This document shows, in pieces, positions 740 through 55,094 of a stretch of DNA of 64,000 bases. Below the pieces are notes generated by a model. That model searched no databases. It was not told the DNA's origin and was given only the letters and a program-made list of their open reading frames with translations. This DNA comes from Amoebophrya sp. A120 (Eukaryota; Protista; Dinoflagellata). Location: positions 1,534,269 to 1,598,268 of the forward strand of contig CAJINV010000017.1 of NCBI GenBank assembly GCA_905178155.1, read 5' to 3'. How positions within the stretch are numbered: position 1 is the first letter of the stretch; the number at the start of each line of letters is the position of its first letter. Made by a program: the position numbers and the translations under genes.

Positions 740-3608
740 ATGTTGTCGGGCCCGATTTTTTTCAAAAAGTATCTGTCTGCAAAAAGATGGTGGAGTCGCC
801 AACTCCATCGGCAGATTCGAAGAGCACTACTGGGCGGGTCTTCGCATCATGGTTCACCCTCGCTGTGCGCTGACGCCGGCGGTAGCGCCTCACAGGTAAT
901 GGCATCTCACGAACGCCAGGTGCGGATGTATCACAGCCTCGCGGACGAGAATCCAGCAGATTGCCTCGCGGGTTTGAGATCACATACAGTGCCAGCCTCA
1001 GCGCTCTCTAGAGGGTTGACCGGCGTAGGAACCGTTGCAGGCAGGAGCACAGCGTCCTCCTCCAGGTCAACATCATCATCATCATCATCATCATGCCCGA
1101 GTGACGTCGTTCATAAAACCGGGAAGACGATGAGTCGTCAAAATCCACCAGCACGACAAGACCACGACCGCTACGAAAATCCCGATCCGCAAGAAGCCGG
1201 GATCACGGGCACGGCCTTGACGATTGGAGTCGTGTCCGCGTTGTGTTACGCGGTCGCGTCCGTGGTGTCCTTTTCATCATCTTCGTCCTCCTCGAAGAGT
1301 GCAAAAAGGTCAAGTTCCGCAGGGGACGATCGCAGCGCCAGAGGCGGAAAAAATACCGAAGTTCCCGCAGACAGCACGTCGCCCAGAATATCGCCACTGC
1401 CGCTTGCCAATCCGGAGGACGACCCTGAGAACTACGACTTCGTTGCCAAAGGCAGCATGCATTTTGTCTACCGCCTGAAGCAGGATATTAAAGGTCGTGA
1501 CGCAACCTCCTCCAACACCGTGCTTCGCGTCCGGAAGAACAGTCAGCAACAAGCGTTTTACGACGAGGAATTTCGACGGAGGGTTGTCAGATCGCTCTTC
1601 CCCGATTGCAACGTGCAGGTGCCGGAGATTGTATTAGCTTCGCCCGAGTTTCTGACCAGACTGGTCGAGCGAACGAGGGCGGCAGACAGTGCTACCTTCT
1701 CAGTAGAAGATGGAACTACAGCCAAGTCTTCTACAAACTCGGGCAGCTTGGCGTCATCTTCTTCATCCAAGAACGGAGATGATCTCATCCCGGTTTCTAA
1801 GCTCCGCGACGCAACCAGAACGTCCGCGTTAAGGAACACAAAATCTACTTCCGTGCTCACGATCGAGATCAAGCCCAAGTGCGGGTTGCAGGAGATCGAG
1901 ACGCTGCCGACGCGGTTCGAGATGCTGCAGTACCAGAAACTGCGGAACGGGGAAATCAGCCGAATCACGAGATATAATCCCGTCCAGATGTTCAAACCCA
2001 GGACGGCGGCCCGGGCGTTGCAAAACCTTTTCGACGAACCCCAGAATTTTCTGAAGGTGTTTCTCGACGGAAAATTGCTGTTCGGGGAGGAGCTGTTGCG
2101 AGGTAGTCCGACCGACAATACCGAATTAGATTCGAATCTTCACGACAATCTGATCGTGGATTTAGCCCGGGAAGCGGGGAAGGCTTTGAAAATATCGGGT
2201 GCGGGTGAAGGATCTACTGCTAGCGGACTTCCATCCGCGAAATCAGAGTTCCTTCTTGACCTCGTCCAGCAGGTCGTACAAGCGGACCCCGCTTGGCAAC
2301 GCATCCTCCACGTGCAGGCGTTCGCGGCCGGGCGAACCGCCGAATACGCCAACGAATTGCTCTATGGATGTGTTAGGATCGAAATCGTCAAAGTTGAAAT
2401 AGTTTGCCATGCATAAAAATGCAACGCAAAGATTGTCTCTATTGCAGAGGACGCAAGGGAGACAGATTGTAAGCCTTTTGAGAGGTAGAAAAAGAGCTGC
2501 TAAAGTAGCATGACAAAAGGAAAAGGCGCCGCCCTTACCCAAACAGCATGACAAACTGGATTTAGGTTCTAAGTTGTGCCCAAGTTTGTCATGCGCCACT
2601 TAGAAACTGGGCTTTCAACTGGCATCCATTTCATGCATGGCAAATTATTTCGACTTTGTCGATTTCGAACCTGACAGATCCATATACTCGAGCACTTGCA
2701 GCGGACGAAGACAAGCACGAGGAACATGATTCTTTCTGTCGACGACTACGCGGCTGCTTTACAAGCGTCCTATCCTGAGTAAAAACGTACCCACGCCAGA
2801 GTTGTAATGCAGATTTGCAAAGACAGGAAGACTTGTAATGCGCATCCCCTGGAGAGCCATTTCCAGTCGTGTTTTGGAATTTGTGATGCTTTGAACAGGA
2901 TGAGCAGCTGGATTTGTGATGCGGCTGCACTTGCTAACCTGCGCTACACTTTAGAGTGCAACTTGTCATGCGTGACTCACAAAACTCCTAGGTTTGTGTT
3001 GCAAAATCCCCATCCTGACTCTGGTGTGGGTACGTTTTTACTCAGGATGCGTCCAAATTTCGTCCCTTTCTGCCCGACGAGAGCGGGATGCGGCTCAGCG
3101 AGCGCGAGGGGCGAAAACTCGTGGAGCAGACGAAGAGGAGCGAATTTTTACCGGGGGAAAGGCAGTTTTCGCAGGCCTCGCAAACGGATTTGGAGAAACA
3201 GATCGTGGCGTACATTTGCAGGTATAATATGACTGTTGGTGTTGCTTCTTGTTGTAAATGGTACTGAATTTTTCATTTAGCATGACTTTCGTATAAAACT
3301 GCAACGGGTCGCTGTGAACATACAAAGCGGCATGAAGATGATGCTATTCCAATTTTCTCCTCGCCCATACCAGGTTCCTGCTCGGCCGCATGGCCATGGA
3401 TTTGAGCGTGATGATGAATTTCGTACACGCCGACGTGGAAAATCTGGAGCCTCTGCGCAAAGCGGGTTTCCGCCCGTTGCGCGGACAGATCTGGTACCGG
3501 CTGACTCTGGTCGATACGGATTCTAAGCCGTTGGACCGGTTACCAACGTATTCCAGGCAGCTGGCGGAGTACGAGAGACTCTGGAAAGGGATGCCGGGTG
3601 GCGGATAG
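740..3608 (+). CDS. IPK1: Inositol-pentakisphosphate 2-kinase; 4 exons interrupted by two introners and one GT-AG intron (3222-3373)
   Basis: Motifs FVAKGSMHFVY, VLRVRK, TIEIKPKCG, YNPVQMF, EPQNFLKVF. After splicing: AYICRFLLGRMAMDLSVMM (matches the FLxxxxxxDxSxM motif) and LVDTDSKP. The true start could be a downstream ATG. Confidence 0.85.
2363..2684. mobile_element. Introner E1 (322 bp, TIR about 52 bp) in IPK1
   Basis: Left end tatggatgtgttaggatcgaaatcgtcaaagttgaaat pairs with right end atttcgactttgtcgatttcgaacctgacagatccata. TSD tgctc/tactc. Removal gives ANELL-EHLQR in frame. Confidence 0.9.
2771..3049. mobile_element. Introner E2 (279 bp) in IPK1
   Basis: TIR tatcctgagtaaaaacgtacccacgccagagt / actctggtgtgggtacgtttttactcaggatg. 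TSD cgtcc. Removal gives AALQA-SKFRPF. Confidence 0.92.
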
Positions 3609-4720
3609 GAGTGAGAAAGTGGATTGCTGTGGCGCTGGTCTACTTGATGCTGCGAGGAGGAGCTGACAAGTTCAATGAAGCGCATTTTTTGCGATGGTGA
3701 GAGTGATCAAGAAAACACCTACTTCAAGTGAACAGTACTTCGAATCCGCATGCTAGCGCAACAAGCCACTTTTTTGTTGGATGTGATGTCCCCATGCAAA
3801 TCACGAGTCTTGAAGTTTCACGCTGTTTCGCACAGCACCAATGGCACTACGAGATAAAACACGTATGCGCATACTTACAGTAGACGAATACCACTAAAAG
3901 AGCCGAGTCGTGGAGAATGTTGGAGCGTGTTCACGTGCTAGCTGACTGTGCTAGGCAATGATATACACAGCGAATTCAAAATATACGTATGTATCAAAGT
4001 CAAACGAAACATAGAGAGTAGAGTACGAGAGCTGGCGAGCGCACCAAAAAAAAGCAAAAATGCAAACCTGAGTGTAATGATGTTTCTGTTTCAGAAGTTT
4101 CATCTCCGACTTGGCGAAAGCGCCTATGTAATGTGTAGTTTTTCTTGCTGACTCACACATGTCGCCATGACCCCCCTGCCAGACCTAAACGAGTGACTCG
4201 CTCAAGATGATTTTTATCTTTGAAAGTAGGCCTGCCCATCTCAATCTCGAACGCCATAAGTAAGAAGCAGTAGCTCCCAGTAGTACCACTAAGAATCTTC
4301 TTAATCTTCTTCTTTGAAGAGCGTCATATATAAGTTTCATCAACCAAGAGAGAAGATTTACTGCTATCTAAATTCTTCATGCTCGGCATCCTGTTTCTTC
4401 TCGTTCTTTGTTTGAGCCATCTTGTCAACGGCGATAGCGAGAGAAAGGCCTCAGACGAAGCAGGAGCCACCAGCACGGCTAGAAACTCTAGTCCACAAAC
4501 ACGAAACTCCCTCTCCCCGAGGACTAGCTCAACTAGAGAAAGAACAAGAGGCATGAGATAGTCGTGCTGGTGTACAACTAGACTAGTAGGTGTCGCGCCA
4601 AAGTGTTCCTGAAAGTAGATTTTCCATACTAGATTAGTTTGCCCTGTTGCCCCCTCCTCTTTTCTCCCACACACAACTTCTACGCCCTTTTTTCTTTACC
4701 GAACTAGAGAGCCCTAAGTC

Positions 4721-5902
4721 ATGTCCGCCGCCGCCTCGATCCGTACTTCGGTCCGGCAAACCCGGTTCTTCGCGACCACAGTGAAGCGCGCCGTTGACGC
4801 CCCGGCGCGGATCGAACTGAAGATGGGCGTAGGGCTTCGGAACCGGCGGCCGAAGGTATGGGACGGCACGGGGGAGGTGAACAGGTTGAAACCGGTGTAC
4901 TCGAAAGACCAAGTGAAGGAGTGGCGAGAAACCTTCAAAATGCCCAAGCTGCAGCATTCGCTGGGCAGACCGAGCTACAGTGACGACGACATATTAACTT
5001 GGAGAGCGGTCTTTGACAAGTATAACAAAGATCGTTGGACTGTTCGACAACTCTCGAACTACTGTAGACGGATCGAAATCGAATTGACTTTCCAAAACAG
5101 GTGCAGGCGTTTAAGTAGTGCACCTCAGTGCCACTGTCAACTACACGCTAGTGATTACTTATGTTGACCCCGTCCTCTTCGAAGTAAACATCGAACAAAT
5201 ATTAACTCAGGTACTGCAGTGGGCAATCCGGACAGATCAACCTGACAAACTTTCAGAAGCTACTGCAGGAAAAGTACCCCGACATTCCGGAGAAGGAACT
5301 TCCTTCGCTCGTCATGCGACACTGGAAGCAGTTCGATTTGGACGGGAACAACTTTATCGATTTCGGCGAGTTCTGCAAGGTGTCCTTCAAAGTGGACGTG
5401 TCCAGGATGCGGGAGTCGATTTTTGACGGCGGGAACAAGGAGAAAATGAAGGAAATTTTCTTGAAGTACCAAGAAGACGGCTACATAACGGAGACCGGCC
5501 TGTTTCAAATGATGGAAGACTACCGGTTCACCTGCGCAACCACGAGCGATTTGCGAAAGTTGTTGAGCCTGATTGACTATCCATTGCAAATTATGTCTGG
5601 GTCTAGAAGACGAGCGCAGGTTTGTCATGCTCAGCCAGCATGACTCTCAAGTCTGTCATGCAGGTTATGCAAAAGCCCCGACTTTCTGTCATGCAAAAAC
5701 CAACGTACTTTGTCAACACACAACACGTAGCAAGTCAGAAACTTGTCATGCCGAGCCGTCACTTGTGGCCTCCTCATGATTTGCCTCTCAGCGTCACAAG
5801 TTTCCAGACCCAGACACTTTTACAGTCCACATTTACAAGGACAAGGACAACATGCTGTCGGAGCTGGATTTTGAGTCCTGGGCAAAATCCGAAAAAGACT
5901 GA
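4721..5902 (+). CDS. Calmodulin-like EF-hand protein with a mitochondrial-type presequence; introns at about 5034-5224 and E3
   Basis: EF loops NKDxSGQIN, DLDGNNFIDFGEF, QEDGYITETGL and (after removing E3) DKDKDNMLSELDF. The N-terminus MSAAASIRTSVRQTRFFATT is Arg/Ser/Thr-rich with no acidic residues. Confidence 0.8.
5578..5831. mobile_element. Introner E3 (254 bp, degenerate member of the E9/E11 family)
   Basis: Ends tatccattgcaaattatgtctgggtctagaa / ttccagacccagacacttttacagtccaca. TSD ttgac/tttac. Removal restores the EF-hand LID-KDKDNML. Confidence 0.85.
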
Positions 5903-6489
5903 AAATTGATGATCTTCAGAGGAGTACTGTTTGATGTATTTGGTGGCGTGCAGCTGCATTCGCATTCTTTTTCTATGAATAAAACGAATGCTGCGCACAG
6001 TCTACTGGTAAGACACTGTTTCAGAAACTGCAAAAATTCTATACGATCATTTTGGTGCTGGTACTGGATCCCCCTCGTCGTGGTGTCGTGAGCAGAACGA
6101 CAGCAGAACATAAGCGATTTTGCTGGATCAAATCTGTGTCTTTAGAACTCTTATATTTTCCACCGGCTCAGGATCTTCGATATGTGGCGTTTCATTGCGG
6201 AAAACGAAACTAAAAAATACTCGTTGCCTTCAGTCGCATATGCAGGAGCCGTGCAGTAGAATAGATACTTTGCGATGATGTACTGACTTTCGAACGAGCA
6301 GAAGAAAGTAGTGCAGCGGCACAACACCAAAGATCAACGTGTAAACAAAGATAATTTCTGTACTATCTTGGTTACAGCTCTAAAATAAAATATTGGAAGC
6401 GCGTTTGATCCACAGGATTACCTTCTATAAGGAAAGAAGGAGTTTTCTGATGGCGAAAACGGAAAGGATGAAGATAAAAATCGTATAGG

Positions 6490-13837: not shown

Positions 13838-15216
13838 ATGCCCGGCGAGCACGGTCCGGGGATTTGCAGTTGCCAGGACGAGCACAACGCCCTGGGGTTG
13901 ACGGCCAAATGGCTGAACCCCCACATCGCGCTGGACCAGGCCACGGCACTGAACGTGGACTCGGGCGACATCAAGCGGGTTTTGAAAAAATCCTACGACA
14001 ACCGGCTCCGGGATGAGCTCGGCTGCGTCACGACCCCGGACGACGACAACGAAATGCTGGTGTTCATCCCGTTCTCCAGTCCCGTCATGCTGCAATCCGT
14101 CTACATCATCGGCGGCGAAGGGTCCCAACACCCGCGGAAGGCGCGGCTGTTCGCGAATCCGCCCAGCAGCTGCACCGGGTTTTCGGAGTTCGCGGACCGG
14201 CAGCCCGAGCAGGCGCTGGACCTCGCGGAAGACCTCTGTGGGGCGGTCGAGTACCCAGTAAGGGCGACCAAGTTCACAAACCTGCAGCAGCTAGTCATAC
14301 ACTTTGAAACGGTATATGAGCTTTCATTTTTATTTTCTACGTAAAGTGCTTGCATTTTGTAAAGTTGCAATTAGTGGCGCCATGGAGTCTGCTCATCATC
14401 ACTGACGCCGGATAGAACGAAGCATCGTCTCGATGAACATAGAAACTCAAATTTACAATTTTGCGGTCGCTGCAGCACCCGCCCAAATAGATTGCCACTT
14501 ACAGCAGGACGGTGCAGGATTTCCGCGCACGGAGAAAGTTGTATTACCAGTTTCTTTGATGAGGCCTTGCCGAAGAAACGCAAACGACTTTCCAGAAAAA
14601 TCAGCGCCGCGTTGCTTCCGAGTCCTGCGTCTCTGGGATGAATACCGAACGCATAAAACTATCTGCGCCGCCCAGAAGTTTCTCATTCTCTGCAAGCTTT
14701 TCTAACGCGCTCTGCCCACGCCCAAGGCCTTCCCGCGCGCGCCCCGTTTCCGCATGCATTCGTGCTACAGCTACTTCTGTGTAAGTATCTATAAAAATAA
14801 CAAATCATCTGTGTAGCAGTAGCTGACAGGGACGTCTTGTGAATATTTAGAGCGGCCTTCATCTACACATTGTTTGATTGAGGCCAGACTCTTAATGAAA
14901 AAGATGAAAAACTGCTCCCCTCCACAAATGATCTCATTTGAGGCTAGAAGATTTATTTACCCACGATTATAGTGCCACGACTTATACATAGATTTTCATC
15001 CTTTTTCCAAATCTCGTACACCACTTTTACTGTCGAAAAACATCATAACTACAGGACGAGACAGCTGAGGAGAAAGAGGTATTTTGGATCGGCCTCAAGG
15101 GCACCCCAACCGACTACAAACGGCAAGCGGTAATCACCGTGTACGAGAGCCAGGCCAACGTCGCGGATCACGAAGCACCCGAGGAAGCGTTCGCTGCCAA
15201 CATGATGCAGCACTGA
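13838..15216 (+). CDS. PITH-domain protein (PITHD1-like), paralog 1; GT-AG intron 14312-15054
   Basis: LNPHIALDQATALN, DDDNEMLVFIPF, HPRKARLFAN, EYPVRATKFTNLQQLVIHF, FWIGLKG, VITVYESQANVADH. Confidence 0.9.
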
Positions 15217-16295
15217 TCACGATAGTGCTTGCCGCTCCTCCTCCTGGAAGGCGTGCTTGGCGAGGACCACGTATTGAACGTGAAGACGGGCGGGCGGCAG
15301 GCGGCGATGCAGCGCGGCGGTATCATGTACTACCGGGTCGTGATGTTCATCCTCTGCTAGCGCTCATTGTGGGGGCCGAGTTGGTCGTGGGAAGAAGGAA
15401 ATGCAAGAAATGCTTGCTCGCCGGAGTTCAACAGTTAACGACAGCCACATCATGTACGGGCGTTGCACATCAACCGGTCGACGTCGCGAATCTCGACGAC
15501 CAGCGGTGGAGGCCGACGCGGTCGAACATGGCAGGATGCGGACGCGGAGTCGGAGTGTACTTGGGTAGCTCGACGGGGACGGAGGCGCCGGGGTTGTTAC
15601 AATGACGGAGCGTTCAACAACAGGGACAGGACGACGAGGAAAAAATCGCTCAGGCCAAGTTGTGCGAAGCTTGCTCAGAAGTAGAGCACACACGCCACCG
15701 TCAGCAGCTTTTGCCAGAAGAAAAAAAAGCGAATGAATGGCGTGGTCATGGTGCTGGTACACAAGCACCACGATAGAATGTCGTCTTTTGTCTTCAAACT
15801 CGCAAGTTTTACTGGCGACACAGAGAAATAACAGAAACAGCATCAAACTGAGTGACAAGTACTGTTGGGCCGCACAAGTAGGATGCGATGCGCCGACGCA
15901 GCACAATCGAAAGACTTTTCAACGCTAGACTCATCTTCGGAGTTTCCATGTTGAGGTACTCCTGATTGAGCTTGACGCAGGCACTCATTTCAATTTACGG
16001 AGGTAGCTTGCTCGTCGGCTGCAGCTCCTACAAAGTGTTCATAGACGTATTCAGAGCCAGAATTTCGTTTGCACCTGAAGAGTAGCGCCGACAATCCTGG
16101 CCTGTGTACGTGTGACTAGGCACGATATCATCTCCTTAGTAACATAAAGAAGATCCACTTGATGCGCACCCTCTTTGCTATTCCTGATTTGAGGTTTTAG
16201 TTCTATGGGCCTGGTGCAGCGGGAAAGCACTTCACAAGCAAAACCCTGTCGGTACTGTTTTGTTTTCCTACCACTACAACTGCAAGGACTACACC

Positions 16296-17317
16296 ATGCC
16301 CCCTCCACCTGCCGTGGAGCACAGCCACGCCGCTTGTAGTTCCTCCGATGAGGAAGGTGAAGCGCTCGGCCTGAATATCACAGGAAAAAGTGTTAACGGT
16401 AACGGAATTTGTGATGCAGTATCGCACCACAAAACGTGCCCAAAATTGTCATGCATAGCATGCATGCTAAGCAAAATTTGTCATGCATATTTGCAATCCA
16501 TGAAAATAACCGTTAACGTTAACACTTTTTTGTTTGATACTGAACACCAAATGGCTCAACCCGCACATTGTGCTGGACCAGGCCACCGCTTTAAACGTGG
16601 AGAGCGGAGACATCAAGCGGGTCTTGCAGAAGCTTTACGACGACCGGCTTTGTGAAGACGAGGGAAAAGCTGTAGTCGCCACACCGGATGATGATAATGA
16701 GATGTTGGTCTTCATCCCCTTCTCTTCCCCCGCGCAGCTGCAATCCATTTTCGTTATCGGTGGGGAGGGGTCCCAGCACCCGCGGAAGGCGCGGCTGTTC
16801 GCGAACCCGCCCAACAGCTGCACCGGGTTTGCCGATTTTGAGGACCGCCAGCCGGAGCAAGTGCTTGACTTGGCGGAAGACGTCCGGGGCGTCGTCGAGT
16901 ACCCGGTAAGGGCGAACAAGTTTGCAAATCTCCAGCAGCTCGTCATTCACTTTGAGACGGTATCTATAACGCTGCGAAGGGTCTTGTTGCGTGTTGTTTT
17001 TCTGTGTCGAAGTTATCGACGATATCATGCGAACACCCATGTGAAAAGATTACAGGTTGGTACGCAGCAGAGCAGGTTTCGTTTCCAATTTAGCGAGACT
17101 AGCTCAACAACTTAAAAAACTTGTGATACGTCGAAAATCACACCACTGAAATCAGGACGACTCCGCCGATGAGAAGAAAGTCCTTTGGATCGGCCCTAAG
17201 GGCACCCCCACCGACTACAAGCGCCAAGCAGTGATCACCGTGTACGAGAGCCAAGCCAACGTCGCAGACCACGAGGCACCCGACGACGCCTATGCGGCGA
17301 ATCTCTTGCAGCACTGA
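16296..17317 (+). CDS. PITH-domain protein, tandem paralog 2; introner E4 plus GT-AG intron 16960-17155
   Basis: Very similar protein to paralog 1. The shared intron lies after HFET in both genes. Confidence 0.88.
16376..16539. mobile_element. Introner E4 (164 bp)
   Basis: TIR tatcacaggaaaaagtgttaacggtaacgg / ccgttaacgttaacacttttttgtttgata. Perfect TSD ctgaa. Removal gives ALGLN-TKWLNPH; the site is empty in paralog 1. Confidence 0.95.
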
Positions 17318-20688: not shown

Positions 20689-23600
20689 ATGGGAGCGTGT
20701 CACTGCGGTGGTAGTAAGAAAAAGGAACCAGCAGATGATGGGACTGCAGCAACGCTAACGCAGTCAAACGCACCAACACTACCACCGCAAGCAACATCAG
20801 CGACTGCAGCGCAGGAACAAGAAGCTACAAACCTTCTTCCGGGAGAGAACTCAACATCACTCACCGCTCCGGCCGAAGAGGCTGGCGCTTCCACCGTCGG
20901 CCCTGCCGCAAATAAATCTTCAAAGTTCGACGAGGCAAAGCGGTCGACCTCCCGCGAAGAGGATGCTGCGTGGCTGCGAAAATATGGTCCGTCGATGGAG
21001 GCACTGGCGAAGGAGGTGCTCGCCGGTTTGGAGGATACCGAGGGACTACTAGTTTTCATGAATGATTCTACAGACAAAAAAGATGATAAAAACACTTCGA
21101 GCAAGGCCGCCAATAATGATGTTGACAATCAAGCACCAATACCACCGGCAAAAACTTCCAGTAAAACATCAACAAACTCCCTGACCCCGGAGACAGACTA
21201 CCTGGAACTGCTACTGCAGCTTCTGACAGAGGACGCGGACGAAATTTTCTACGCGGTCAGAACCACCGAGGCGCTCGAGGAGGCTGTGGAGAGGTTGACG
21301 CGGATCGGGACACTCTTGATCGACAAGCAGTTCCTGCAAATCGTGAAGTTGAACCGCGTGCTGCGCTTGTCCGAGGCGAAATACAAGATCATCGAACTGG
21401 AAAACTTCCTCGCAAACTACAAGTCCGAGCTCAAGTTCGAACCCATCAGCCCGAATCCGTCGCAGCCAAAGTTGGTAATCATCGCGGAAGAGCAGGAGGT
21501 ATCCCGTGGAAGCGAGGCTGTGCCATCCTTTTCGTGTGTATTTGCGTCCATTGAGAATTGCAATTGCATCAACTCGAGTGGTGGTGTCTTTGTTTTTCAA
21601 TGAATGAGAAAGAGAAAAGAGCTGCCGAGCCCTCCAGCTCGATCTCATCATCAAAGAGGTGCCATTTTTCTCATCGTATGAATAAGTACATTTGCCTTTG
21701 CATGATCTAAAAGTGCAATTCGTACGATATGTGCGACGAGCGATGTTGGCGTTTTTGCAATGCATAAATCGACAGCAGTCCGAACTCGGGCATAAACCCG
21801 AAATCCGAGAAACACGGCCCGACGGAGAAGGAAGACGACGGAGTTTTGCGGGTGCGCACAAGCTATGCAGGGCAAACACCTGGCCTCCGTGTTGTTGTAG
21901 TGTTATTCTAGATTAGAAGCAGGAACGTCTTTGTTGAAATGCAAGCAAACGGGTTTGGATGCGGATGAGTGCGCACCATCGGGAGTTTGAAACTTAATCT
22001 GATCCTGTGAAGAGGAGTCGCGATACACTTTGCCAGAGGTGATATGAGGAACTCCTAGTGCCTTATGCCAAAACAGCGCGCAGCTGAAAGTGAAACCGCA
22101 ATTGATTCAGACTTCACACCCAACAGCATTAATACACAGCCTTGTTGCACTGCATACATGAAAGTTGACTGGCGCGGATCAGGAAGTCGTCGTGACCAAG
22201 GAAATCCGGCCGCCGCAGGGCGCTTACAGCAGCAGCGTAAGTGCGACGGCGAACAAAGCACCAGCTGACGGAACAACTGGCGCTGTCTCACCCTCTTCTG
22301 AGGCGAATACAACAGACGGAGGCGCGACGACCAGTGCTGCTCCTAATGGAGCAGTTCCACCCGCGACCACTTTTCTCGATCCCGCCATTGGAGGGGGCGG
22401 GAGCGGCGGCACGGGCCCGTTGCTGAAGGAACGGACGCTGTCCCGGGACAGTAATCGATCGCAGAACAGCACGGGGAGTCGGGCGAAGGTGCAGGTTCTC
22501 GTCCCGCCCGCGCACGCCGAGATGGCGCAGTGTCTGTGCGACTACTTTCACGAGTGCATGTCGGGCAAATATAAAAAAATCGTCGACTCCATCAACTTTA
22601 CGCTGGAGCGGATGACCGCGGCGCTGGGAGCGCTGTACAAGGAGCAGCGGTTGGCGGACTACGTGCCGTTCCACCTGAAAAAGAAGGACCACGTATGAAT
22701 TGCAAAAGTATCGTACTCGTATAAATGCTTTACAAACTTCTTCAGCATGAGAAAGAAAATTTGTGATGCGGATTTGCCTTAAGAGCAAGATTTGCAATGC
22801 ATGTTTGCAATTACTACGAGCGCGATACTTTTGCACAGGATACCACGTGTACGACGTGGACGTAGATTTCGACATCCGCATCAACTACGCGGCAGACAAG
22901 GGAAAAGTCTATGCGTACTTTGACGCGAGCCCGATTCCGATCCCAATCCAGCACATTGCCAGCCTGGCGCACGAAGTAGATCGTATGATCGGTTTGGAAT
23001 TTCAAAGAGGTCGTCAAGCTCAACTAAGAAAGCTCCACCTCATTTCGTTAATCTAGCGCTACTCCTTGGCTCTTCGCACACATTTGTCTCCTGCTTGCGG
23101 CAACACAAACGACCAAAACAGAGGGAAATCCATCGGTCGGCGTCAACGCCATAGAATTTTTGCTTTCTCACTGGGCGGGTGCGGCGGGAAGATGGAGGTA
23201 GAGCTTGAGTGAGGCTTGCCGGAAGTTTTGAAGTTTTTTGCCTGCATACTTCTCTGGTCAGAGCTTGTTCCCTACGTTCCGAGCATCGACATCGTGAAAC
23301 AGTGGTCCTTCGCAGACAGGGTCCACAAAGTGACCATGGCGCCGCCGATACCGTGGTCCAGAAACATCGAGTGCTACATGCACCGCTCGCTGTGCGATTT
23401 AATGGAACTGGATGCCACAAATTCGGTGCTACAAATCCAGCCAAAACTGTACCAACCGACCTGGATGCCGTCGGATTGTACTGATTTTCATTGTAGTGCA
23501 GTTTGTAGCATCGTGGTGGAAGAACAGACTCTATCGTCGTGAAAGTTGTGCCTTCGAATGAACAATGGCCGAGCAGCTCTGTTGCTACAGAGGTGGTCCT

Positions 23601-25650
23601 GGTCCTCGTGGTTCTTGTTGCAAAACAAGACGATCATATTAGTTCTCCTTTTTAATTAAAAATCCAAATTCACAACCCGTTTACACGACGACACGCGTCT
23701 TCTACAACACAACGACTCTACAAAATCATCCAGGTACCCAGCAGCTGAAGGAGCGGTACCACTACCAGGCCGGCATTGCGATTTTCGAGGCGAGTCCGAA
23801 ACCCTACCCCGCGATCCGTCAGGCGGTCCAGGAAAATCCCGAACGGGACTTCCCCTGGCGCGACATCCGAATCCCGGGCGTCCCGAAGGACAAGCAGAAG
23901 AAAGTCTATCACAGCAAAAAGTGTTAACATTAACGGAATTTGTGATGCAGCAAGCAGCAATGCATCACAAAAGATGCCAAGATTTGTAATGCATAGCATG
24001 CATATTGGGCGACATTTGTGATGCATGTGCAGGTAGATGAGTTGTCGTATAGGATGAATTGCACCCAAATACGTATTAGGAATCCAGCAAAGCTTACATC
24101 GTATCGTATTGCGAAAGCTCGAAAACAGCGAGCAAAGCACTTTACCAGCCAATTTCTTCAAAAGCGAAAATGGCGGACCCTGTGTCGTATTTGCCCAAAA
24201 ACGAAGGCAATAGCTTAGCAGCTGAATTGTCACAAAGCGAAGCAATTCAGCGCAGAAACACAATGCAGCCTATCTCGGTCGATCGGAAATATATTTGCCG
24301 GCAAAAGCCAGTGACAAGCTTTGAAGCAAGAAGACAGCAGTCCACGAAAGTGGAAGTGCCCGACACGCTTCCAGGCGCCTCCGATAGAAGCGGTCGCTCT
24401 ACGTCTACAAGGCCGGTCGGCGGTCGCGCGGAAGGGCTGCGCAGGCGCTTGGCATATGGCGCGACTGGCAGTGTGCGTGCCGACGTGCTCCGCATAGCAG
24501 TAGCACTGCTTTAAACTTAAAGCAAAAGCGAAAATAGGCAGCGCGCGCGCCCTAATTTCGCATCGCGCCAGCATGCGAAAGAGGGCCCGGGGGGGGCGGG
24601 GGGGGTACACAGCCGCCCCCAGGCGTTATCTATGGGCTATGCCAGGCGCGAGGCGTGCCGAAAAATCATAATGTTGGGAGGCTTGCGGCAATTTGCTCGG
24701 AACGCTCCACCGCCACACGCGCAACCATGCCCAGGGCCCAGGAGAGCACTCCTTGGCAGTACCCCCGCAAACTGGCTGCGGTAAAGCGCAGCGCCTGCAG
24801 CTTTTTACCCGTTCCGCCATGCTTTTGCCCTCGAACAAGTGCGCGCGGAAGCCTAGGGCCCCGAGCAATCAAGCCTGCGCGGATCAGGTGATAATCACGT
24901 GAGGAGTCACGTGATAATCACATGATTTTGGCGGCCCATAAGCCATTTTGAGTTGTCTTCATCACGTGATAATCACATGATTATCACGTGATGACGACCC
25001 CGGAAAGGCGACGGCCAAAATTTCAAGATATGACGCTCCCCCCGTCATACGTGGAACCCAAAGCGGCAAAACAGTAACGATTCACGAAGAAAACGGAGCA
25101 AAGACGAAAGTCGAACGTATGAGCTATATTGTGACAATTCAGATCGCGCCAGAAACTACACAACAAAAAGTCAAAAAAGCAACTCAGCATGGAGCAATTC
25201 AGATTACTGCATGCATGCCTGCAATCTGTGAAAGCCGTTAACTTTAACACTTTTTCCTGCGATAAAGTCGCCCGGTTTAACACGGAGTGTTTCTTGATCA
25301 TCGGCACACCGTACTTGATCGCGAACCCCCATTTCGACCCGAAAAAGCCGGCCACGTTCGGGGACGACAACACAAACCCGAAGGCGCTCGAGGCGTTCCG
25401 GGCGCGGGGGATGGTGGAGGTGGACTGGAACCCCTGGGTGCGAACGATGTGCCCCAACGTGCTAGTGCGGTACATCGCGAAGAAAATTTGCAGCCAGTTG
25501 CTAACAAAAATGATGGAGGTGCACAAGAATTTCGACCAGAGCGAGCACAAGCGGCGGCTGGAGCAAGATGCGGAAAGGAGATTCGTTCTCGGTCAGCTAG
25601 CCGACCGGGTACAGGAATATTTAAAGAAGCGCTTCAAGAAGGTGAAATAG
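20689..25650 (+). CDS. Multi-exon protein with an N-myristoylation/palmitoylation-type start and a probable START/SRPBCC lipid-binding domain
   Basis: Starts MGACHCGGSKKK. Approximate exons 20689-21498, 22181-22693, 22848-22982, 23253-23425, 23734-23906, 25270-25650. Segments IASLAHEVDLWSELVPYV, PPIPWSRNIE and GIAIFEASP resemble protist START-like proteins. Some junctions are approximate. Confidence 0.6.
22694..22842. mobile_element. Introner E5 (149 bp)
   Basis: TIR tatgaattgcaaaagtatcgtactcgta / tacgagcgcgatacttttgcacaggata. Perfect TSD ccacg. Removal gives KKDH-VYDVD. Confidence 0.9.
22984..23248. mobile_element. Degenerate introner E6 (265 bp)
   Basis: tatg...cata ends, eroded TIR, eroded TSD gatcg/cttct. 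Removal in the 4|1 register gives HEVD-LWSELVPY. Confidence 0.55.
23907..25264. mobile_element. Introner E7 (E4 family, 168 bp host) carrying a nested insertion
   Basis: TIR tatcacagcaaaaagtgttaacattaacgg / ccgttaactttaacactttttcctgcgata. Perfect TSD aagtc. Removal gives QKKV-ARFNTE. Confidence 0.9.
24028..25211. mobile_element. Non-coding 1184-bp element nested in E7
   Basis: Ends TGCAG...CTGCA flanked by a tgcatg duplication (24022-24027, 25212-25217). Subtracting it leaves a host collinear with E4. Confidence 0.75.
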
Positions 25651-37821: not shown

Positions 37822-37972
37822 GCCTCTGCGAATTTAGAAAAGTGGCCCTCGCGAATTTCGCGCGAATTTAGAAAAGTGGCCCTCGCGAATTTCGAAAGCC
37901 CGACCTGAAATTGCGTTTTTTTCTAAATTCGCGCGAAATTCGCGAGGGCCACTTTTCTAAATTCGCAGAGGC
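37822..37972. repeat. Inverted repeat with arms of about 54 bp built from GCGAATTT motifs
   Basis: gcctctgcgaatttagaaaagtggccctcgcgaatttcgcgcgaatttagaaaa (37822-37875) is the reverse complement of 37919-37972. Confidence 0.85.
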
Positions 37973-39448
37973 CGCTTTTGCAAATTCGCACGGGCCACCT
38001 TTGTAAATTCGCAAATCGAGAATACCGCCCTGATTGGGCATGCCTTTAAACGCTTAGCCCGATGGTGCTCTGGTGTTCCAACTTTAGCAAAATTCAAAAA
38101 TTACATCTGAAGCCGCATGGTATGACGAGAAAGCGGCTGCGATTGTGCGTGACGGCGTTAAAAGTTTCGCATCTGGCGCAAAAAGCTGCTGCTCATAATT
38201 GACGCCGTGGCAGTTTCTAAGCCGGCGCCTGTCGCATCGAAAGCGAAGAGGCCCCCTCGATGGTGAGGCACGGGAAACGCAGCAAATTTCCTTGCGTCCC
38301 TCGGAAGGGCATGGGACCGCGAACAGGGTGGCCACGTGATTGGCCACCAGACGTTGGCGCTTGGATTTGCGCTGAAATTCGCTTGAAATTCGCGCCTGCT
38401 CTTTCTAATGGGTGCCCAAGCTCTAAGCGAAGCGGTACATAGACGCCGGAATCGAGCTCTCCTGGAGGAATTCGCACGGTGAAACAGCGGAGGAATTCGC
38501 AAAGTGGTACATCGAGAACCCGCGACCCAGCGCCCCCGACAAGCGGCAGCAGGAACACTGCCAGGAGATTGTGGACGCGATAAACATGAAAAAGCGTAGC
38601 CGAGACCTCGGGCGGTCTTGCAGCAGTAGCTCAGCGAATTAAAAATTGATCCATGATTCCATTACACCAGGGGCGATCGATGCGGTCAGGGTTTAGAAGG
38701 AAAAAGGGCTTCTAGTAGTAGCGTCGATCTCTTCAATCAAAACTGAAAGTAATTCCGTCAGCACATTCGTTCTCTGATCCACAAAAGCGTGTCGGTCTAT
38801 TCTAGGTAGTTAGTTGATCGCATTCTTGATTTTTACAGCTCAGATGACGTCGGAAGAAACGACACAGCAAAGTGTTGATATCGACGACGCAAAAGCCGTA
38901 AGTATGAAAGTCAATTGAGGTGTGGGCTATCCCCATCCTTATCCTATCCTATGGTTCGATCCCGGTCCCGTACATTGTTCCTGTGAGGAGGTGATCCCTT
39001 GTTTACTCGAAGTTGTGTGTCCGACCGGAGCGAAAGTGAGTGTGTAAGTGAGTGCTAGAAGAGGGTCCTGCCTAGCACGGCGCATCGAAGATTTTCCACC
39101 CTGTCATCGTGACGCATATTTCACTTCCTCGAGAGAAATTCAGAAAGAGAGGACAGCACTAGGAGTTGTGGTTTTCCAGGCATGTGGTCCTAAGCGTTAA
39201 TGACTACATCTTCTTCGTCGCCGGTCATAAATACGTTGTGTATCTGTTGACGAGGGCAACGAACAATCTCGATACGTTACCGATATCATGTTGCATTTGC
39301 ATTTTATCTCCCCGTTATTTGTCTAGAAGTGAAAGTGAATTACATAGATCCGTCTCGCATTGCTCCTGCATTACGACTGAAAAATGAGTTCTCGGAGTCG
39401 GAGCCACAAGAATCATGTCGCGTGTTTGAATTTAATCTTTTCTTCTAA

Positions 39449-48506: not shown

Positions 48507-51500
48507 ATGTCGACCCGTCTCTCCTCCCGTACGCGCTCCTCTTCTTTCGGGAGCGCGGTGCACGAAGCGGCCCAGTTACGGGAAAGTTTATTGCAACAAC
48601 AGAACTTTCAACATTCGGACCAAGCCGCGAACCGCTACGGTGTCGCAGCGAAATCCCGGCGGTTGTCCGTCCACACGGGCGCCGCCAGTCCCTTGGTGGT
48701 CCGTGCTCACGCAGCGAGTGGTCGGGGACAGGGGCAGACGAGCTTGTTGAGTGTGCCGCCAAATGGAAATATCCTCGATGGAGGGGTGATCTCTCCTTCC
48801 GCCGTTTCACCGAGAGGAAGCGGCGCTGATGAGCAGCACGCAAACAATTTCTCACTCAGGCCAACGCCGTCGCCATTCAATATTGGCAGCAACAAAGTGG
48901 AGCCGAGAATAAGCAGTATCAGTGGAGATAGATTGCACCCAACAGGGTCTCCGATAGCGATACAAGCACACCAGGGCGCGGCAAGTCTTCTAGGGCAGCG
49001 TAGTATTTCGAAATCCGAAGTTCGTGGCGCAGCGTCTCCAAGAAAGACCACCACCAGCGATGCGCTTCATTTGCAGCTGTGGGCACAGCTGACCGCACTG
49101 TTGGGAGGGGGTGCTGATGCCGACGTTACTGATAAAGCGATATTGTCTGCTCCTGACGCCGATGCCCGAGCCACACTTCTACCAGGCGTGGAGCCAGCAG
49201 ATGAAGCTGCCCTTCTCCCCACGTCAAAAACTACAGCCGAACTCGGCCGCTCCACGGCCATCGCGTTTTCGTACGGAATCATCAACTTTGTGTGCGTTTT
49301 GCCCGTCATCGTCGCGTACGCGCACATTGTCTACGCGAGTAACGATTTCGAGGAATACATGCCGTACATTTTGAAAGTCGTCATGCTGAGTTGCTGCATC
49401 CACCAGGCCTTGTTCTCGTGGTTCAGCCGACTCCCCTTCTCCATCGGCCAGGTCCAAGACGTCGGCTTGATCTTTCTCGCGGCGATTACAAAAAACGTCC
49501 AGGAGCTCGCAACCTACCAAAACGCCCTAGCAGAGCAGGCACGGACGGCGCTACTGGCAAAAGCGGGCAATTATCCGGGTTTACCCGGCTTGGAGGGCGG
49601 AGTTGGCAGTGCACGACCAGCAGCACAACTTGCAGCCCAGGCCTACCACCCCATAACGACGAAGGAGATTGTTGCGACGAGTCTCTGGGCGGGTGGGATC
49701 GGCACGACAATCACCGGCTTGATTGTTTGGTACGTGGGGTATCGGCAGTTGGTCGACTACGTCTCGTTGCTCCCCTTGCCGGTCGTGGGCGGATATTTGG
49801 GTTACATCGGCTGGTTCTGCATCGTATTCCCTGAAAATTGACCGTCCCCATCCACTTTTGGCATGGCAAGCACATAATTTGCTACGTGTTTTCCATGACA
49901 AACTGGATGGGGGATGGTTAATTTTCAGGGAATACATCGCGGCGGGGTTGACCATCATGTCCGGACAACAGATCAACGCCCCCTGGACGGTGGCGCCGCT
50001 GTTCTGCGAGGAACAGGTGCCGTACTTGGTTTCCTTTGCGCTGTTTCTCGTGCTGTTTCTCTTCATCCACTACCGGTTGAGCCACCACGTCTTCGTGATG
50101 CCCACGGTGTTGCTGCTCGCTCCGGTCGGTTTTCTAGCCATCGCGATCTACGGCTTGGGGTTTACGCTAGAGGAACTGCGGGAGGAGAATTGGCTGAGCT
50201 ACCCGGCAAAGGGGCTGGTGTGGGGCCCGACACAATACGCGATCTACGATCCGAGGCTGGTGCACTGGAGCTTTTTGCCGAGGCAGATTGGGAACTTCAT
50301 CGGTACCCATCAATGAAAACGAATGCTCTTTGCTGGATTTCTGAACACTTCTCTACGCAAACCAATATATGAAAATCGCGAAAAGAATTTGAATCACATT
50401 CACCTGCATGATGACAAACACAAAGATCTAAATCGCCTACCAATTACCCTTCTCAGGTCTCACCATCGTGGTCACCTTCGGCTCTTCCCTGGACGTAGCC
50501 GCGATCCAGGCGGAGATTCCCTACCGCTTGGATTTCAACGGCGAAATGCGGATGATTGGCGGCGCGAATTTCATTGCGGGATTGACCGGTGGCATGACGG
50601 GCAGCTACATCTTCAGCCAGACGATTTTCTCGCTGAAATCCCAGGTCACCAGCAGTCTTTGCGGCTGGACGGTTTTCTTCTGCGAATTTCTCCTGTGGGC
50701 GCTACCGATCGACTTATCCTGCGTGTTGCCAAAACCCTACGTCGGTGCGTTAGTCGCGTTATTCGGCGTCGACATTCTCCGGGACTGGCTGTGGAAAAGC
50801 CGCGCGCTCCTGTCCCAGATGGAGTACGTCCTTGTGTGGCTCGCGTTTTCCATCATTATGGTTCTCCAGGGGTTAAACAGCTTCGGGGTGATTGAAGGGA
50901 TGTTAGTCGCGACGGGTCTGGCCTGCGTCACGTTTGTCTGCCTGTACAGCACCTTGCCGGTGTGGACGGTCGGGCCGCAGACGAGATCCGGGCAGTTTCG
51001 GAGGTACAACGAGCGGAAAGTGCTGGACCGGCAGAAGCAGCAAATCTTTGTGTGCCAGTTGAAGGGGTACATTTTCTTCGGCTCCAGTATGGATTTGAGC
51101 ACACGACTGCTGAACGCCGTGCTGGATCATTTCCAAAAGGCGGACAAGATCTCCAGATTGCAGTTCGGAGGAGGCGGATCTGTAGTGCAGGCGGGGACGG
51201 GGGGCGGCGACAAGGCCATCGTGACATCAAGTTTGATCCAAAATAATAGAGGTGGTGAGGGAACAAACAATCCATTTCCTGTCGCGCCGTCAAGACAAAA
51301 TCCCGATCAGAATCTCGCAACACACTTGCTGAACGAAGAAAAAACGGGAAAGGTGAACATCAAGAATCTCCCAACTCCTGCAGCAGCAACCACCGCAACA
51401 CGAGCCGGACGTCCGCCGCAGCCCAGCGAAGCGGTCTTCAACGTCGCAGCTGACAACCCAGCACGAATTTCGGTCCAAACTAGCGACTTCCCGGACGAAA

Positions 51501-54500
51501 GTAGAGAGAGCACGTTTGCAGTCCCGAGAATCAGTGTGGACGACCCGCGCTATTCCGCCATCGATAGCGTGGTGACAGTCGACCCATACGGGACAACTAG
51601 GGACTCCGCCGCGCAAATGAACCACCTGCCGAAAAACTACAGCGAATCCAACCGGAGTGGCTCGTCGGCTGTGCTACATGATCCAGCACACCTTCCCCTG
51701 TCGCAGCAGCAACCGCCTTCGTCCCACTACGTCTCCGGTACCGGGGGGCTGACCGATGACGAGTTGATTCCAGTCAACCGGGATGATAAACAAGCCAACG
51801 CAAACCGATCAGAGAATGGCATATTTGAGGACTTTTCCTACACACTGCAAATCAACACAGACGGGAATATTTCTAGCAGGACGACGACAAATCAAAACGC
51901 GATCATGCTAGAGCAGCAGAATAGTCCTCCTGACCATCAAGAAGAAGATCAGTTTTTGCACAAGCTGAATCTCCGGTCCCCGACCTCGGAAGCGTCGTTT
52001 GTCCTCCCGACACCGATTGGACCTGGAGCTCCTTCGCAGCCAAAATTTGTCGTGTTAGATTTTGAGCAAGTACAGAACATCGACTCAACCGCTTGCGTGT
52101 CCCTGGCGAGTATGAAAGTCTCTTTAAAAACCTCCGACGTGATGGTCTCCAACTCGCGCTTGCACTTCGTCTATTGCGGAATAAGGTCGGATTCCCTTCG
52201 GGAGCTGCTACAGGCAAACAACGCACTGAACAGCAACGAGGACTACGAGTTTGGTGCGTTGGAAGATGCCTTGAACTTCATCGAAGAGATGATTCTGAAC
52301 CACCACTACGAAAACTTAAGCCTGTATGAGGTGGAGATGAACTACACTGGCAGTGGTATATTAGCAGGAGGAAGTACTACTTCTAACCCGCCGCGCTCGA
52401 GTCTTGCGGCGTTTCACAAGTCAAGAAACGCAAACTTTGCCCTGACGCTCGAGGAGATCTTGTTGGAGTACTTTCGGCAGGACCCGACTGTGAACCCGCC
52501 GAACATGTGGTCTCCAAGGGTGACGGCGAGCTCGACTTACCGGCCGCAATTTTACCCCGCTTCTGCGTCTGCTGGCTACGAGCCACCGAAGCCGGTTTTT
52601 ACTAGTGACACAGGAGAGGGACGAGATGACACGACGGCAACTTCTGCAGGAGCGCAGCTAAAGAGTGCAAAGCAAAACGCCGCCAGCACGACCGAGTCGG
52701 AGTTCGTGCAATCTGGACAGAAAACCGCTTCCTTTCCGGACGAACCAGGAGTCGAAGTTGCGTTAACCAAGGCGACGTCGAGCACATCCAGCTCCTCATC
52801 GCAGCCGATGAGTCGGCAACTGCTGGTGCTGGCCGATAATTCGGAACTACAACATGAGCCTTTCTCCCAAGACTACACGAGCTCGAGCACGGCGCAGCAC
52901 CAGCAGCAGCATCCCCCACTGCTGGGGATGAAGCCGCAACACCAAATCTCCCTCACCGATATCCGGTCCCACGACTTCCTAACCGGGTTGCGGCAGATCG
53001 CCAAATCCTTCACGGTGACCTTAACACTACCCGCGGGCGCCGTCCTCTTTCGGTCAGTATCAAATGCAAAAATGTCTGGGTCTGGAAGAGTCATGCTGTT
53101 TTTGCATCACGCAGAAGGTCTGGCATGGAAGCTGTAGCATCACAGGTTTCGAAAAGCTTCCGCAATGCCGAATCCGCATGACAAATCCCCCACTTTGGTG
53201 ACAGAAAGTGGGCAGCTTTTGCTACCTATGCATCAGAGATTTTTCTGTGTGCTGAAATGCGCATCACAAGTTTGTATTCTTCCAGACCCAGACACTTTTA
53301 CATTTGATAGTCAGAGGACGTCTGCAACGCGGTGTTTTTCGTCAGTAAGGGTATCCTGAGTAAAAACGTCCCCACACCAGAGTTGTCATGCAAATCTGCA
53401 TGCCAAAAAAGTTTCTCATGCTGAGACGATTCCGGTTTATGATCCCAGTCCCCCCTCCCACCCTTTGCTTCTGTTGCAGAATAAGTCAAGCTGAGTCACT
53501 ACGGTTGCCGCGCACAAATTAAGCCTTTAAGTTGTCGCTGTGCCCCAGGTGGGTTGCCAGTCAGCAGTGCCAAACAACTGGTCTATGGTTTGACAACTGT
53601 GACCCGCTCGCTTGCCTTTTTCGTCCGTGCCGCAGGTAAGGCGCAAACGGTCCAGCCTCCCCTGTCTGGGCGGGGCTGCGGCTTAGGGGAGAGTCTCGCC
53701 CCTTCACCCAAAGGGGTGCGTCGTCTCTTCCGTGAGAGCAAAAACGTAGGGCGTAAAATGGGTCGGGTCCTGGATCATTCTGTATGTTGGGCTGTCGCGC
53801 TCGGCTTGCTGGCCGGGCTGTACCGATCAGGTGTGGTGGGTAGCTCCCGACTGGTTGGTACTTTTCTTGGGGCGACTTGCCGTGGTAGCGCTCGGCTTTT
53901 GTATGATGAGGTCGCCGAAAGTGCTTCCTCGCCCACCCCCCGGGGAGGGGATCCTTGACCTGTGGCGCTGGGAGCGGGTGTCCACTACATGATGATGATG
54001 ATGCTGAGCCCCATGAAAGGCATTTTCTAATCGTGTTTTGGGATTTGTGATGCTATAATCAGCATGATGTGCTAGATCTGTGATGCTGCTGAACTACCTA
54101 AACAGGATTACATTACAAGGACAAACGTGTCATGCGAAACAGCCAAAGCTGGTTGATTTGTCTAGCAGATTTCCCATCTTGACTCTGGTGTGGGTACGTT
54201 TTTACTCAGGATAAAGGGGGTGGTAGAGGTATCCGCGTGGCGCTCGTTGAAGAACAACGCGGCGAGTTTGATCAAGAACGATCCGACGCTAGGGGTTGCT
54301 GGTGGCGCAGGTCCGTTTGGAAATATTAGAGCAGGACCAGGAGGAGCTACAGCATCTTCACAGTCGCATCTTCAAGATCGACAGACGATGCCAACGGTCG
54401 TGCAACACCAATCTACTTCTGCACGGCAGGAAACGCTGAAGTCCACGACAATTTCCCCGACCCTGTCCTCCTGGCTCCGAACGCGTTCGATCCAATGCCG

Positions 54501-55094
54501 GCCCGGTGCGCTGCTGGGCAACACGGCGTATCAAATGCAAAAATGTCTGGGTCTGGAAACTTGTGATGCTGTGTGGCGTATCATGAGGAGGCCACAATTG
54601 CTGGCTCAGCATGACAAGTTTCTGAGCTTCTAGGTGTTGCCTATTCTGCATGACAAACTACGTTTCTGCATGACAGAAAAGTGGGGCGCTTTGGTAATGT
54701 GCATGACAGATTTAAGAGTCATGCCAGACAAGCATGACAAACTTGCATTCTTCCAGACCCAGACACTTTTACATTTGATACGGCGTTTGCCTACCCCAAA
54801 AGGGAGATGGTGTACGGGTTTGACGCGGGTTATCCAGAAAAAAACACCCATCCCCATCCAATTTGTCATGCAAAACCCGCATAAAGTGCAGTGTTTGTCA
54901 TGCTAAAAATGGATGGGGATGGGTGTTTTTTTCTGGATACGAGTGCGAGTGAGGATGTAGGTGCGGTAGTATTCAAAATCGATCGGGAGGCCATGCGCCG
55001 GATGGAGCTGCGAAATCCTAATTTAGCATTATTGCTGCACAAAGTCTTCCTTCAAGACATGTGCTACGACGCGATCAGAGACTTGGTTGACTGA
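48507..55094 (+). CDS. SulP/SLC26 anion transporter with STAS and cyclic-nucleotide-binding domains; five introners and one GT-AG intron (50303-50456)
   Basis: TM domain (IGQVQDVGLIFL, LPLPVVGGYLGYIGWFCI, GSYIFSQT), STAS (QLKGYIFFGS, FVVLDFEQVQNIDS), and a cNMP domain reassembled after splicing (AGAVLFRSEDVCNAVFFVSKGVVEV...PGALLGNTAF...IDREAMRRMELRNPNLA). Confidence 0.92.
49825..49934. mobile_element. Introner E8 (110 bp)
   Basis: TIR tattccctgaaaattgaccgtccccatcca / tggatggggatggttaattttcagggaata. Perfect TSD catcg. Removal gives WFCI-AAGLTI. Confidence 0.93.
53058..53309. mobile_element. Introner E9 (252 bp)
   Basis: TIR tatcaaatgcaaaaatgtctgggtctggaa / ttccagacccagacacttttacatttgata. Perfect TSD gtcag. 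Removal gives LFRS-EDVC. Confidence 0.95.
53352..54213. mobile_element. Introner E10 (E2 family, 279 bp host) carrying a nested insertion
   Basis: TIR tatcctgagtaaaaacgtccccacaccagagt / actctggtgtgggtacgtttttactcaggata. Perfect TSD aaggg. Removal gives VSKG-VVEV. Confidence 0.93.
53426..54000 (+). mobile_element. 575-bp SINE or truncated non-LTR-like element nested in E10
   Basis: 8-bp TSD atgctgag (53418-53425, 54001-54008), 3' (ATG)n tail, no TIR. 862-575-8 = 279 bp, the length of E2. Confidence 0.8.
54529..54780. mobile_element. Introner E11 (252 bp, E9 family)
   Basis: TIRs identical to E9. Perfect TSD cggcg. Removal gives LGNTA-FAYP. Confidence 0.95.
54831..54939. mobile_element. Introner E12 (109 bp, related to E8)
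   Basis: TIR tatccagaaaaaaacacccatccccatcca / tggatggggatgggtgtttttttctggata. TSD cgggt/cgagt. Removal gives FDAG-ASEDV. Confidence 0.93.

Follow-up and report, generated by a model that had tools for sequence, protein, structure and literature searches.

The window analysed here is a stretch of 64,000 nucleotides from the dinoflagellate Amoebophrya sp. A120 (contig CAJINV010000017.1), in which transposon-like elements interrupt the coding exons of five genes. A scan for inverted repeats that start with TAT and are flanked by a 5-bp repeat recovered 11 elements between positions 2363 and 54939, which we number E1-E11 (Table 1). An initial annotation of the window had proposed at least 12 transposon-like introns. 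The kind of element was recovered but the number was not: no twelfth element appeared when the scan was relaxed to three of five duplication matches and a weak terminal inverted repeat (TIR) score, and our numbering diverges from that of the annotation after E5. The elements belong to the introners already published for A120, and taken together the data described below make it highly likely that these known introners are removed at the RNA level.

Table 1. Host genes and introner elements, with positions counted from the first base of the window
Feature	Position	Strand	Description	Host gene
IPK1, inositol-pentakisphosphate 2-kinase	1130..3608	+	571-amino-acid model; canonical intron 3222-3373; PF06090	
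E1	2363..2684		322 bp; TIR about 56 bp; duplication mismatch at base 2	IPK1
E2	2771..3049		279 bp; ends ATG; 5-bp duplication perfect	IPK1
EF-hand protein gene	4721..5902	+	243 amino acids; canonical intron 5020-5210; Pfam-confirmed	
E3	5578..5831		254 bp; ends ACA; duplication mismatch at base 3	EF-hand gene
PITH-domain paralog 2	16296..17317	+	218-amino-acid model; PF06201	
E4	16376..16539		164 bp	PITH paralog 2
Host gene of E5 and E6	20689..25650	+	723-amino-acid model; candidate family name without Pfam support	
E5	22694..22842		149 bp; basis for removal: frame	723-amino-acid-model gene ('START-like' in the initial annotation)
E6	23907..25264		1358 bp; E4-family element carrying an insert of about 1.2 kb	723-amino-acid-model gene
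SulP/STAS transporter	48507..55094	+	1607-amino-acid model; canonical intron 50303-50456; Pfam-confirmed	
E7	49825..49934		110 bp	SulP
E8	53058..53309		252 bp; duplication GTCAG	SulP
E9	53352..54213		862 bp; E2-family element; nested insert about 53426-54000	SulP
E10	54529..54780		252 bp	SulP
E11	54831..54939		109 bp; duplication mismatch at base 3	SulP

Host genes and element ends

Pfam bore out the names given to the IPK1, EF-hand, PITH and SulP genes in the initial annotation but not the name 'START-like', as the last exon of that gene matched 0 Pfam families. When each element is removed together with 5 nt, stop-free frames are restored in all five host genes, whereas taking 0, 4 or 6 nt along with the element fails to give open frames (examined in the three multi-element or PITH genes), and a singly retained element introduced a premature stop in 9 of the 9 cases tested. 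Protein comparisons gave the same picture. The EF-hand exon is a 100% match to a protein labelled Amoebophrya sp. A120, and the annotated A120 EF-hand protein (P0001, 243 residues) equals the model from which E3 has been removed. The PITH paralog at 13838, which has no interruption, aligns across the E4 site with zero residues gained or lost. The E7 site is crossed gap-free by 109 of 110 homolog alignments; the A120 SulP protein itself was absent from the search of representative proteins, which returned homologs alone. The two PITH-domain paralogs lie in tandem (13838-17317) and share one canonical intron, and only the second contains an introner. The canonical donors in the window read GTAT (6 of 10), GTAC (2) or GTAA (2), with no pattern of G at +5.

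The ends reported earlier, a TAT start and an ATA end with ATG in E2 and ACA in E3, were the same in our 11 elements. A 5-bp duplication flanks all 11 and is perfect in eight, the copies differing by a single base in E1, E3 and E11; the erosion that had been ascribed to E6 was not found there. Likewise, the remark that most elements have no usable GT-AG pair could be extended, since 0 of 11 offer GT..AG, whichever of the six registers permitted by the duplication is considered. The TIRs are around 30-56 bp long, and 10 of the 11 elements passed a TIR score that was reached by 0 of 20 shuffled windows. The exception is E3, whose ends alone score at chance level, and which shows 79% identity to E10 over 239 bp in the opposite orientation. 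By inspection, the inverted repeat of 10 elements starts with TAT, seven variable bases and at least three A; the E1 family has no A run at that place. Six TIR families can be discerned (E1; E2 and E9; E3, E8 and E10; E4 and E6; E5; E7 and E11). The earlier count of about six is thus retained, though the families are not fully unrelated, as all contain a common internal motif. An Rfam scan of the window gave 0 matches. Two repeat arrays were also observed: a palindromic array of 22-bp units (37812-38024) with a 54-bp perfect inverted repeat, which lies in a long intron and is not of the TAT..ATA type, and, between genes, an array of about twelve partly palindromic 39-bp units (60658-61137).

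Absence of the elements from transcripts

Removal was followed in four contig sets from one sample. Their label as RNA is a guess; the sets skip canonical GT-AG introns and therefore represent spliced RNA. For 7 of the 11 elements these contigs support loss of the element together with 5 nt and without use of GT-AG, in five cases by a direct joint and in two by length. All five direct joints are in the SulP gene: 115 nt are skipped at E7 (2 of 4 runs), 257 nt at E8 (3 of 4), 867 nt at E9 (4 of 4), 257 nt at E10 (3 of 4) and 114 nt at E11 (3 of 4). For E1 and E2 the evidence is an exact-length argument from one contig that displays no joint: 248 nt lie between its two mapped pieces, which equals 1011-327-284-152, that is, the genomic distance minus E1+5, E2+5 and the canonical intron. 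Beyond the RNA contigs, removal is based on the annotated protein for E3, on the intact paralog for E4 and on the frame alone for E5 and E6. Removal of the element plus 2 nt, a form suggested by the N-T..A-N classes of Farhat et al., was rejected as the main form, as 7 of the 7 RNA-tested sites lose the element plus 5.

A deviating product was found at E8. In the fourth run, one contig (depth 4.2; window 53057-53314) skips 258 nt by means of GT..AG, which is taken from the two duplication copies of E8 and removes one base too many, resulting in a frameshift. This contig may be an error; if it is real, E8 was part of the pre-mRNA and accessible to the spliceosome. In a DNA run, the single-copy flanks have a depth of around 42 and contigs continue from them into the elements, over which (E1-E4) the summed depth runs into the thousands, a figure that is not a copy number.

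The initial annotation had listed three findings that would count against its proposal, namely retention of the elements in transcripts, pseudogene hosts, and junctions at nearby GT-AG sites, and where these could be tested none was observed. The SulP elements (5 of 5) and the IPK1 elements (2 of 2) are skipped, and the main junctions do not use GT-AG, which was seen in the single low-depth E8 contig. Its proposal that MITE-like elements (miniature inverted-repeat transposable elements) are removed precisely from pre-mRNA is supported by the joints, the repeat depth and the presence of 5-bp duplications on hundreds of copies.

Shared architecture and mobilisation

Related copies were collected from 146 loci (535 kb, around 442 kb unique) of one related assembly, retrieved with a pattern from one TIR family; one protein of this assembly is 82% identical to its A120 ortholog over 97 residues. 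An unbiased scan of these loci returned 577 inverted-repeat pairs, 411 of them without a flanking repeat of at least 4 nt. Among the 166 pairs with such a repeat, it measured 5 nt in 141, and 137 of those 141 had TAT..ATA ends. When no duplication filter was applied, 299 TAT..ATA pairs were found, with a perfect 5-mer in 227, a 5-mer with one mismatch in 37, a 4-mer in 1 and a 6-mer in 0. An anchored scan of the loci listed 353 elements in 26 TIR groups, with TAT..ATA ends in 324 and relatives of all six window families among them; long transposase-coding copies, for which the initial annotation had recommended a search, were not convincingly found in the loci. Frames were called separately for the two flanks in 33 cases, of which 4 were strand-discordant; among the other 29, on the same strand, 24 imply that 5 nt are kept. 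All families have one end geometry, TAT-type ends plus a 5-bp duplication, and this is added here to the published description. With respect to spacing, neighbouring elements in the loci are never less than 26 nt apart and often 37-65 nt (218 gaps), and the insertion phase is uneven (99, 68 and 52). One 109-bp element (255-363 of L014:77-550) is nested in a second element that itself interrupts a gene with DUF285 repeats.

The host strand could be scored for 272 of the 353 elements and was called confidently for 219. Within this set the motif described below points in the sense direction of the host transcript in 74 elements and in the antisense direction in 67, with 78 ties, and close relatives have been inserted both ways (for instance 9 and 9 for the E5 relatives). 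The duplication shows no base bias and resembles the flanking exon, and GT-AG would be possible in 10 of the 219. None of 1011 words tested was sense-enriched, no position deviated beyond chance, and there was no branch-point bias. We infer from these 219 related copies that removal is independent of orientation and of GT-AG. Mismatches in the TIRs of 199 elements are G-U in 158 and A-C in 161 cases, so there was no sign of selection for RNA wobble pairs, in a test that is weak if pairing needs are loose. Complementarity reaches 98% for TAT and only 72% for positions 4-9. Together, symmetry and pairing indicate that any signal read on RNA is supplied alike by both ends and that tight pairing beside the cuts is not required.

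The internal motif TTGT[C/G]ATGC occurs in 25 exact copies within the elements (4,111 bp) and in 0 copies in the remaining 59,889 bp of the window, a count that is circular, as the motif was discovered in these same elements. Allowing one mismatch, every window element holds 2 to 6 copies, and there are no clusters outside the 11 elements. The held-out test was provided by the loci families that had not been used as bait: an exact TTGTSATGC is present in 133 of 169 elements but in 0% of background stretches of the same length, and a copy with at most one mismatch in all 169 elements, compared with 11% of the background. Representatives of 11 families have no interior similarity apart from the motif. 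It is located just inside the TIR; of 618 ends, 405 carry it reading inward and 77 reading outward, with one family reversed. Neighbours in the same direction are 31-33 bp apart in 12 of 22 cases in the window (random mean 1.8) and in 192 of 596 cases in the loci, where the spacing is seen in 11 of the 12 families listed, with copies that are not independent; in the largest loci family a spacing of 39 bp is commoner. A spacing of three helical turns and the indifference to strand would suit a DNA-binding site, like the subterminal repeats of other transposons, and we slightly favour the motif being a putative transposase site. A role as sense-strand splicing enhancer was rejected on the basis of the 74:67 orientation. 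No mention of the motif was found in the text of the literature searched, nor of the common geometry, the strand symmetry or the cut register discussed below; figures S19-S25 of Farhat et al. may show the motif or the 5-bp rule.

The elements have TIRs, a target-site duplication (TSD) of fixed length and no coding capacity, and thus the features of MITEs or non-autonomous TIR DNA transposons. That introners occur in Amoebophrya, as stated in the initial annotation, is indeed in print; the publications cover this class of element, its TAT start and its interpretation as MITE-like (PMC7789003, PMC12130899). Farhat et al. describe 29,850 A120 introners whose inverted repeats begin with TAT, followed by seven variable bases and then AAA; these have direct repeats of 3-5 nt and RNA-supported non-canonical junctions and are considered MITE-like (PMC7789003). 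Organism and kind are the same here, yet the TIRs measure around 30-56 bp instead of 8-20, and the 5-bp duplication throughout, the cross-family motif, the strand symmetry and the narrowed cut register are additions to the text of that work (PMC7789003). Among 40 of the 58 A120 rows in the supplement of Gozashti et al., most families are filed as TIR DNA elements of 105-320 bp; the supplement gives family 38 as Ginger with a 5-bp TSD and TA/TA termini, and family 19 a TSD of 5 determined by hand, while the main text describes family 38 as being without Ginger termini and TSDs (PMC12130899). Most superfamilies are left unassigned in those tables and automated TSDs range from 2 to 6 (PMC12130899), in contrast to the one geometry to which the present data point for all families.

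Considering the shared ends and motif, a single mobilising system probably serves all families. One integrase-type (Ginger or IS3EU-like) transposase would move them, recognising both the internal TTGTSATGC repeats and the TAT-N7-AAA ends, and would make a 5-bp staggered cut at target sites without base preference. The TA..TA termini of IS3EU/GingerRoot resemble those of the A120 elements (324 of 353 TAT..ATA), Ginger2 has a TSD of 4-5 bp, and the integrase-like DDE enzyme of such transposons would fit (PMC10045372). The combination of TA ends and a 5-bp duplication lies between IS3EU/GingerRoot and Ginger2, so the transposase is probably integrase-like, and the elements are filed in neither group. 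Among the long TAT..ATA candidates in the loci, ten exceed 500 bp, several being false pairings across neighbours, and none has a convincing transposase open reading frame (ORF), these ORFs not having been scanned with Pfam; six ORFs in E6 and E9 (four in E6) gave no Pfam match, and viral contigs gave 0 matches to one TIR pattern.

Two elements of the window carry inserts. The E9 insert (53426-54000) has an 8-bp flanking repeat and a tail of ATG repeats, and agrees in 169 of 169 bases with an insert that a relative in the other assembly carries at this site (L022:5372-5540), the surrounding elements being around 83-93% alike. From its sequence it looks like a recent non-LTR-type element that targets introners. 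A deletion series from a longer parent (862-457-279 bp) was set aside, as the identity of the insert relative to that of the elements fits later nested insertions. The E6 insert of 1.2 kb (about 24028-25210) contains palindromic 11-bp repeats (24883-24998), a 7-bp flanking repeat and possible GT..AG bounds, without a Pfam match and without a relative in the loci.

Cut register, removal machinery and significance

Where the two copies of a duplication differ, the product shows which copy stays. The upstream copy is kept at base 2 in E1 (one contig) and through base 3 in E11 (three runs), and the upstream base 3 of E3 encodes an Asp that is conserved in the annotated P0001 and the homolog P0002. 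The downstream copy accounts for base 4 at one locus (L125), where the A120 ortholog P0156 has the downstream-copy Lys in a region that is around 95% conserved, and for base 5 at another (L014), where Met suits the DUF285 repeat (4 of 7 complete units have Met, 0 Val). All five mismatched duplications agree with a 5' cut 2 nt ahead of TAT and a 3' cut 3 nt beyond ATA. An intron of the form NN-TAT...ATA-NNN is therefore fairly probable as judged from these sequences; the first three duplication bases of the mRNA would then come from the upstream copy and the last two from the downstream copy. In an alternative register the spliceosome would cut one base ahead of TAT and 4 nt beyond ATA, such that N-TAT mimics the host G-TAT donor. 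This is compatible with all three duplication mismatches of the window, but the downstream base 4 at L125 agrees with an ortholog from a well-conserved region; we consider it unlikely. Its appeal lies in the GTAT donors (6 of 10 canonical ones), in the nine commonest non-canonical A120 classes, which begin N-T according to Farhat et al., and in the one E8 contig that uses this cut; however, aligners favour GT-like registers, and the E8 contig represents ordinary GT-AG splicing.

The explanation that we put forward combines these parts: A120 introners, spread by one integrase-type transposase, are removed by the major spliceosome at a fixed distance from symmetric ends, for which we estimate a probability of around 0.45. 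The host major spliceosome would act as a ruler, measuring from both ends. The predicted 3' end of the intron consists of a U run followed by seven bases, then AUA and finally three free bases; this places an A at -6, and this first A of ATA could serve as branch point, as in Stentor. The 15-nt introns of Stentor have the branch A at position 10 of 15 (-6) and most commonly end in a U run, AUA and three bases; they differ in that GU and AG are kept, U1 is present, and the introns are tiny and not mobile (PMC9505925). In the tunicate Fritillaria borealis most introns escape GT-AG with the major spliceosome only, which indicates that this spliceosome can process introns that are mostly not GT-AG; on the other hand, U1 and a duplicated U2AF are present there, and the available part of that account describes neither long TIRs nor free dinucleotides (PMC13326754). 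The A120 spliceosome is reported to be nearly complete, with U1 undetected (PMC7789003).

Several points weigh against this explanation. The RNA comes from one sample and in the form of contigs, which drop rare forms. The GT/GC-AG ends of major-spliceosome introns are found in 0 of 11 window elements and 10 of 219 in the loci, fully free terminal dinucleotides are unusual for a spliceosome, and no U2-pairing sequence is common to the elements except AT. With respect to the cuts, the base-4 and base-5 calls are one homology comparison each in a different strain, and synonymous changes make up 15 of the 17 duplication mismatches at bases 1-2 in the loci but 6 of the 15 at bases 3-5 (p 0.008), an excess that is predicted neither by a freely mutating intronic copy nor by a single fixed register. 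With respect to mobility, no transposase was found in the window or in the loci (around 0.44 Mb), and Farhat et al. found none in A120 (PMC7789003). The TSD of IS3EU/GingerRoot is usually 6 bp (PMC10045372), where the loci have 0 perfect 6-mers and 227 perfect 5-mers in 299 pairs, and Ginger ends differ from those of the A120 elements.

We give removal by the spliceosome about even odds; the main rival, a nuclease plus ligase, is somewhat less probable. In this rival, a non-spliceosomal endonuclease and ligase would recognise either the terminal stem or a protein that occupies the ends and the motif, as in the nonconventional introns of euglenids. In its favour, the cuts have no base preference, no strand-specific signal was found, the predicted fold of E10 is a long hairpin (z -7.9, with z -3.8 in a second fold test), U1 is undetected (PMC7789003), and release as circles has been proposed for euglenid introns whose ends pair (PMC11170887). 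Those introns are alike in being non-GT-AG, in their direct repeats and proposed MITE origin, and in that the pairing of their ends begins at some distance from the cuts and leaves more bases unpaired on the 3' side; they differ in their end motifs and in the circles reported for them (PMC3935182, PMC11170887). Against such a machine speak the equal numbers of G-U and A-C mismatches, the modest complementarity of positions 4-9, the spliceosomal tunicate precedent (PMC13326754), and E3, whose outer pairs are absent from the predicted fold and which is nevertheless precisely missing from the annotated protein. In a wider and rather doubtful form, the symmetric ends and internal 9-mer of one transposon system would serve two readers. 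On DNA this would be the transposase, and on mRNA a dedicated cut-and-join machine other than the spliceosome, possibly the same or a domesticated protein, which would act during transcription and remove insertions by the tens of thousands, whatever their orientation or sequence context.

Excision from DNA in the transcribing stage, like that of the internal eliminated sequences of ciliates, would mean that the elements are not introns. This is very improbable: the complete strand symmetry and the DNA-like phasing of the motif would suit it, and the RNA and DNA runs come from different samples with the stage uncontrolled, but DNA contigs pass from single-copy flanks into the elements, the GT-AG-spliced E8 requires an element in pre-mRNA, and the duplication mismatches are asymmetric in the transcript sense. 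Least credible of all is that the joints arose when reverse transcriptase switched templates between direct repeats on either side of a hairpin, a geometry known for such artefacts (PMC8240250), and that the true transcripts keep the elements. Given that retention causes a premature stop in every tested case, that the joined forms are the main contigs, that the E11 joint shares only 2 nt and is still exact in three runs, and that homologs are collinear across E7, the joints can hardly be attributed to this.

The end design, the motif at fixed spacing and the candidate register offer baits and predictions for the mobilising protein, its autonomous copies and the branch position. If removal occurs on RNA, be it by the spliceosome or by a nuclease and ligase, an element would be removed exactly from any exon position and in either orientation without splice dinucleotides. 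It would become understandable that a transposon can accumulate in genes with little harm to its host, and the known range of mRNA splicing would be broadened.

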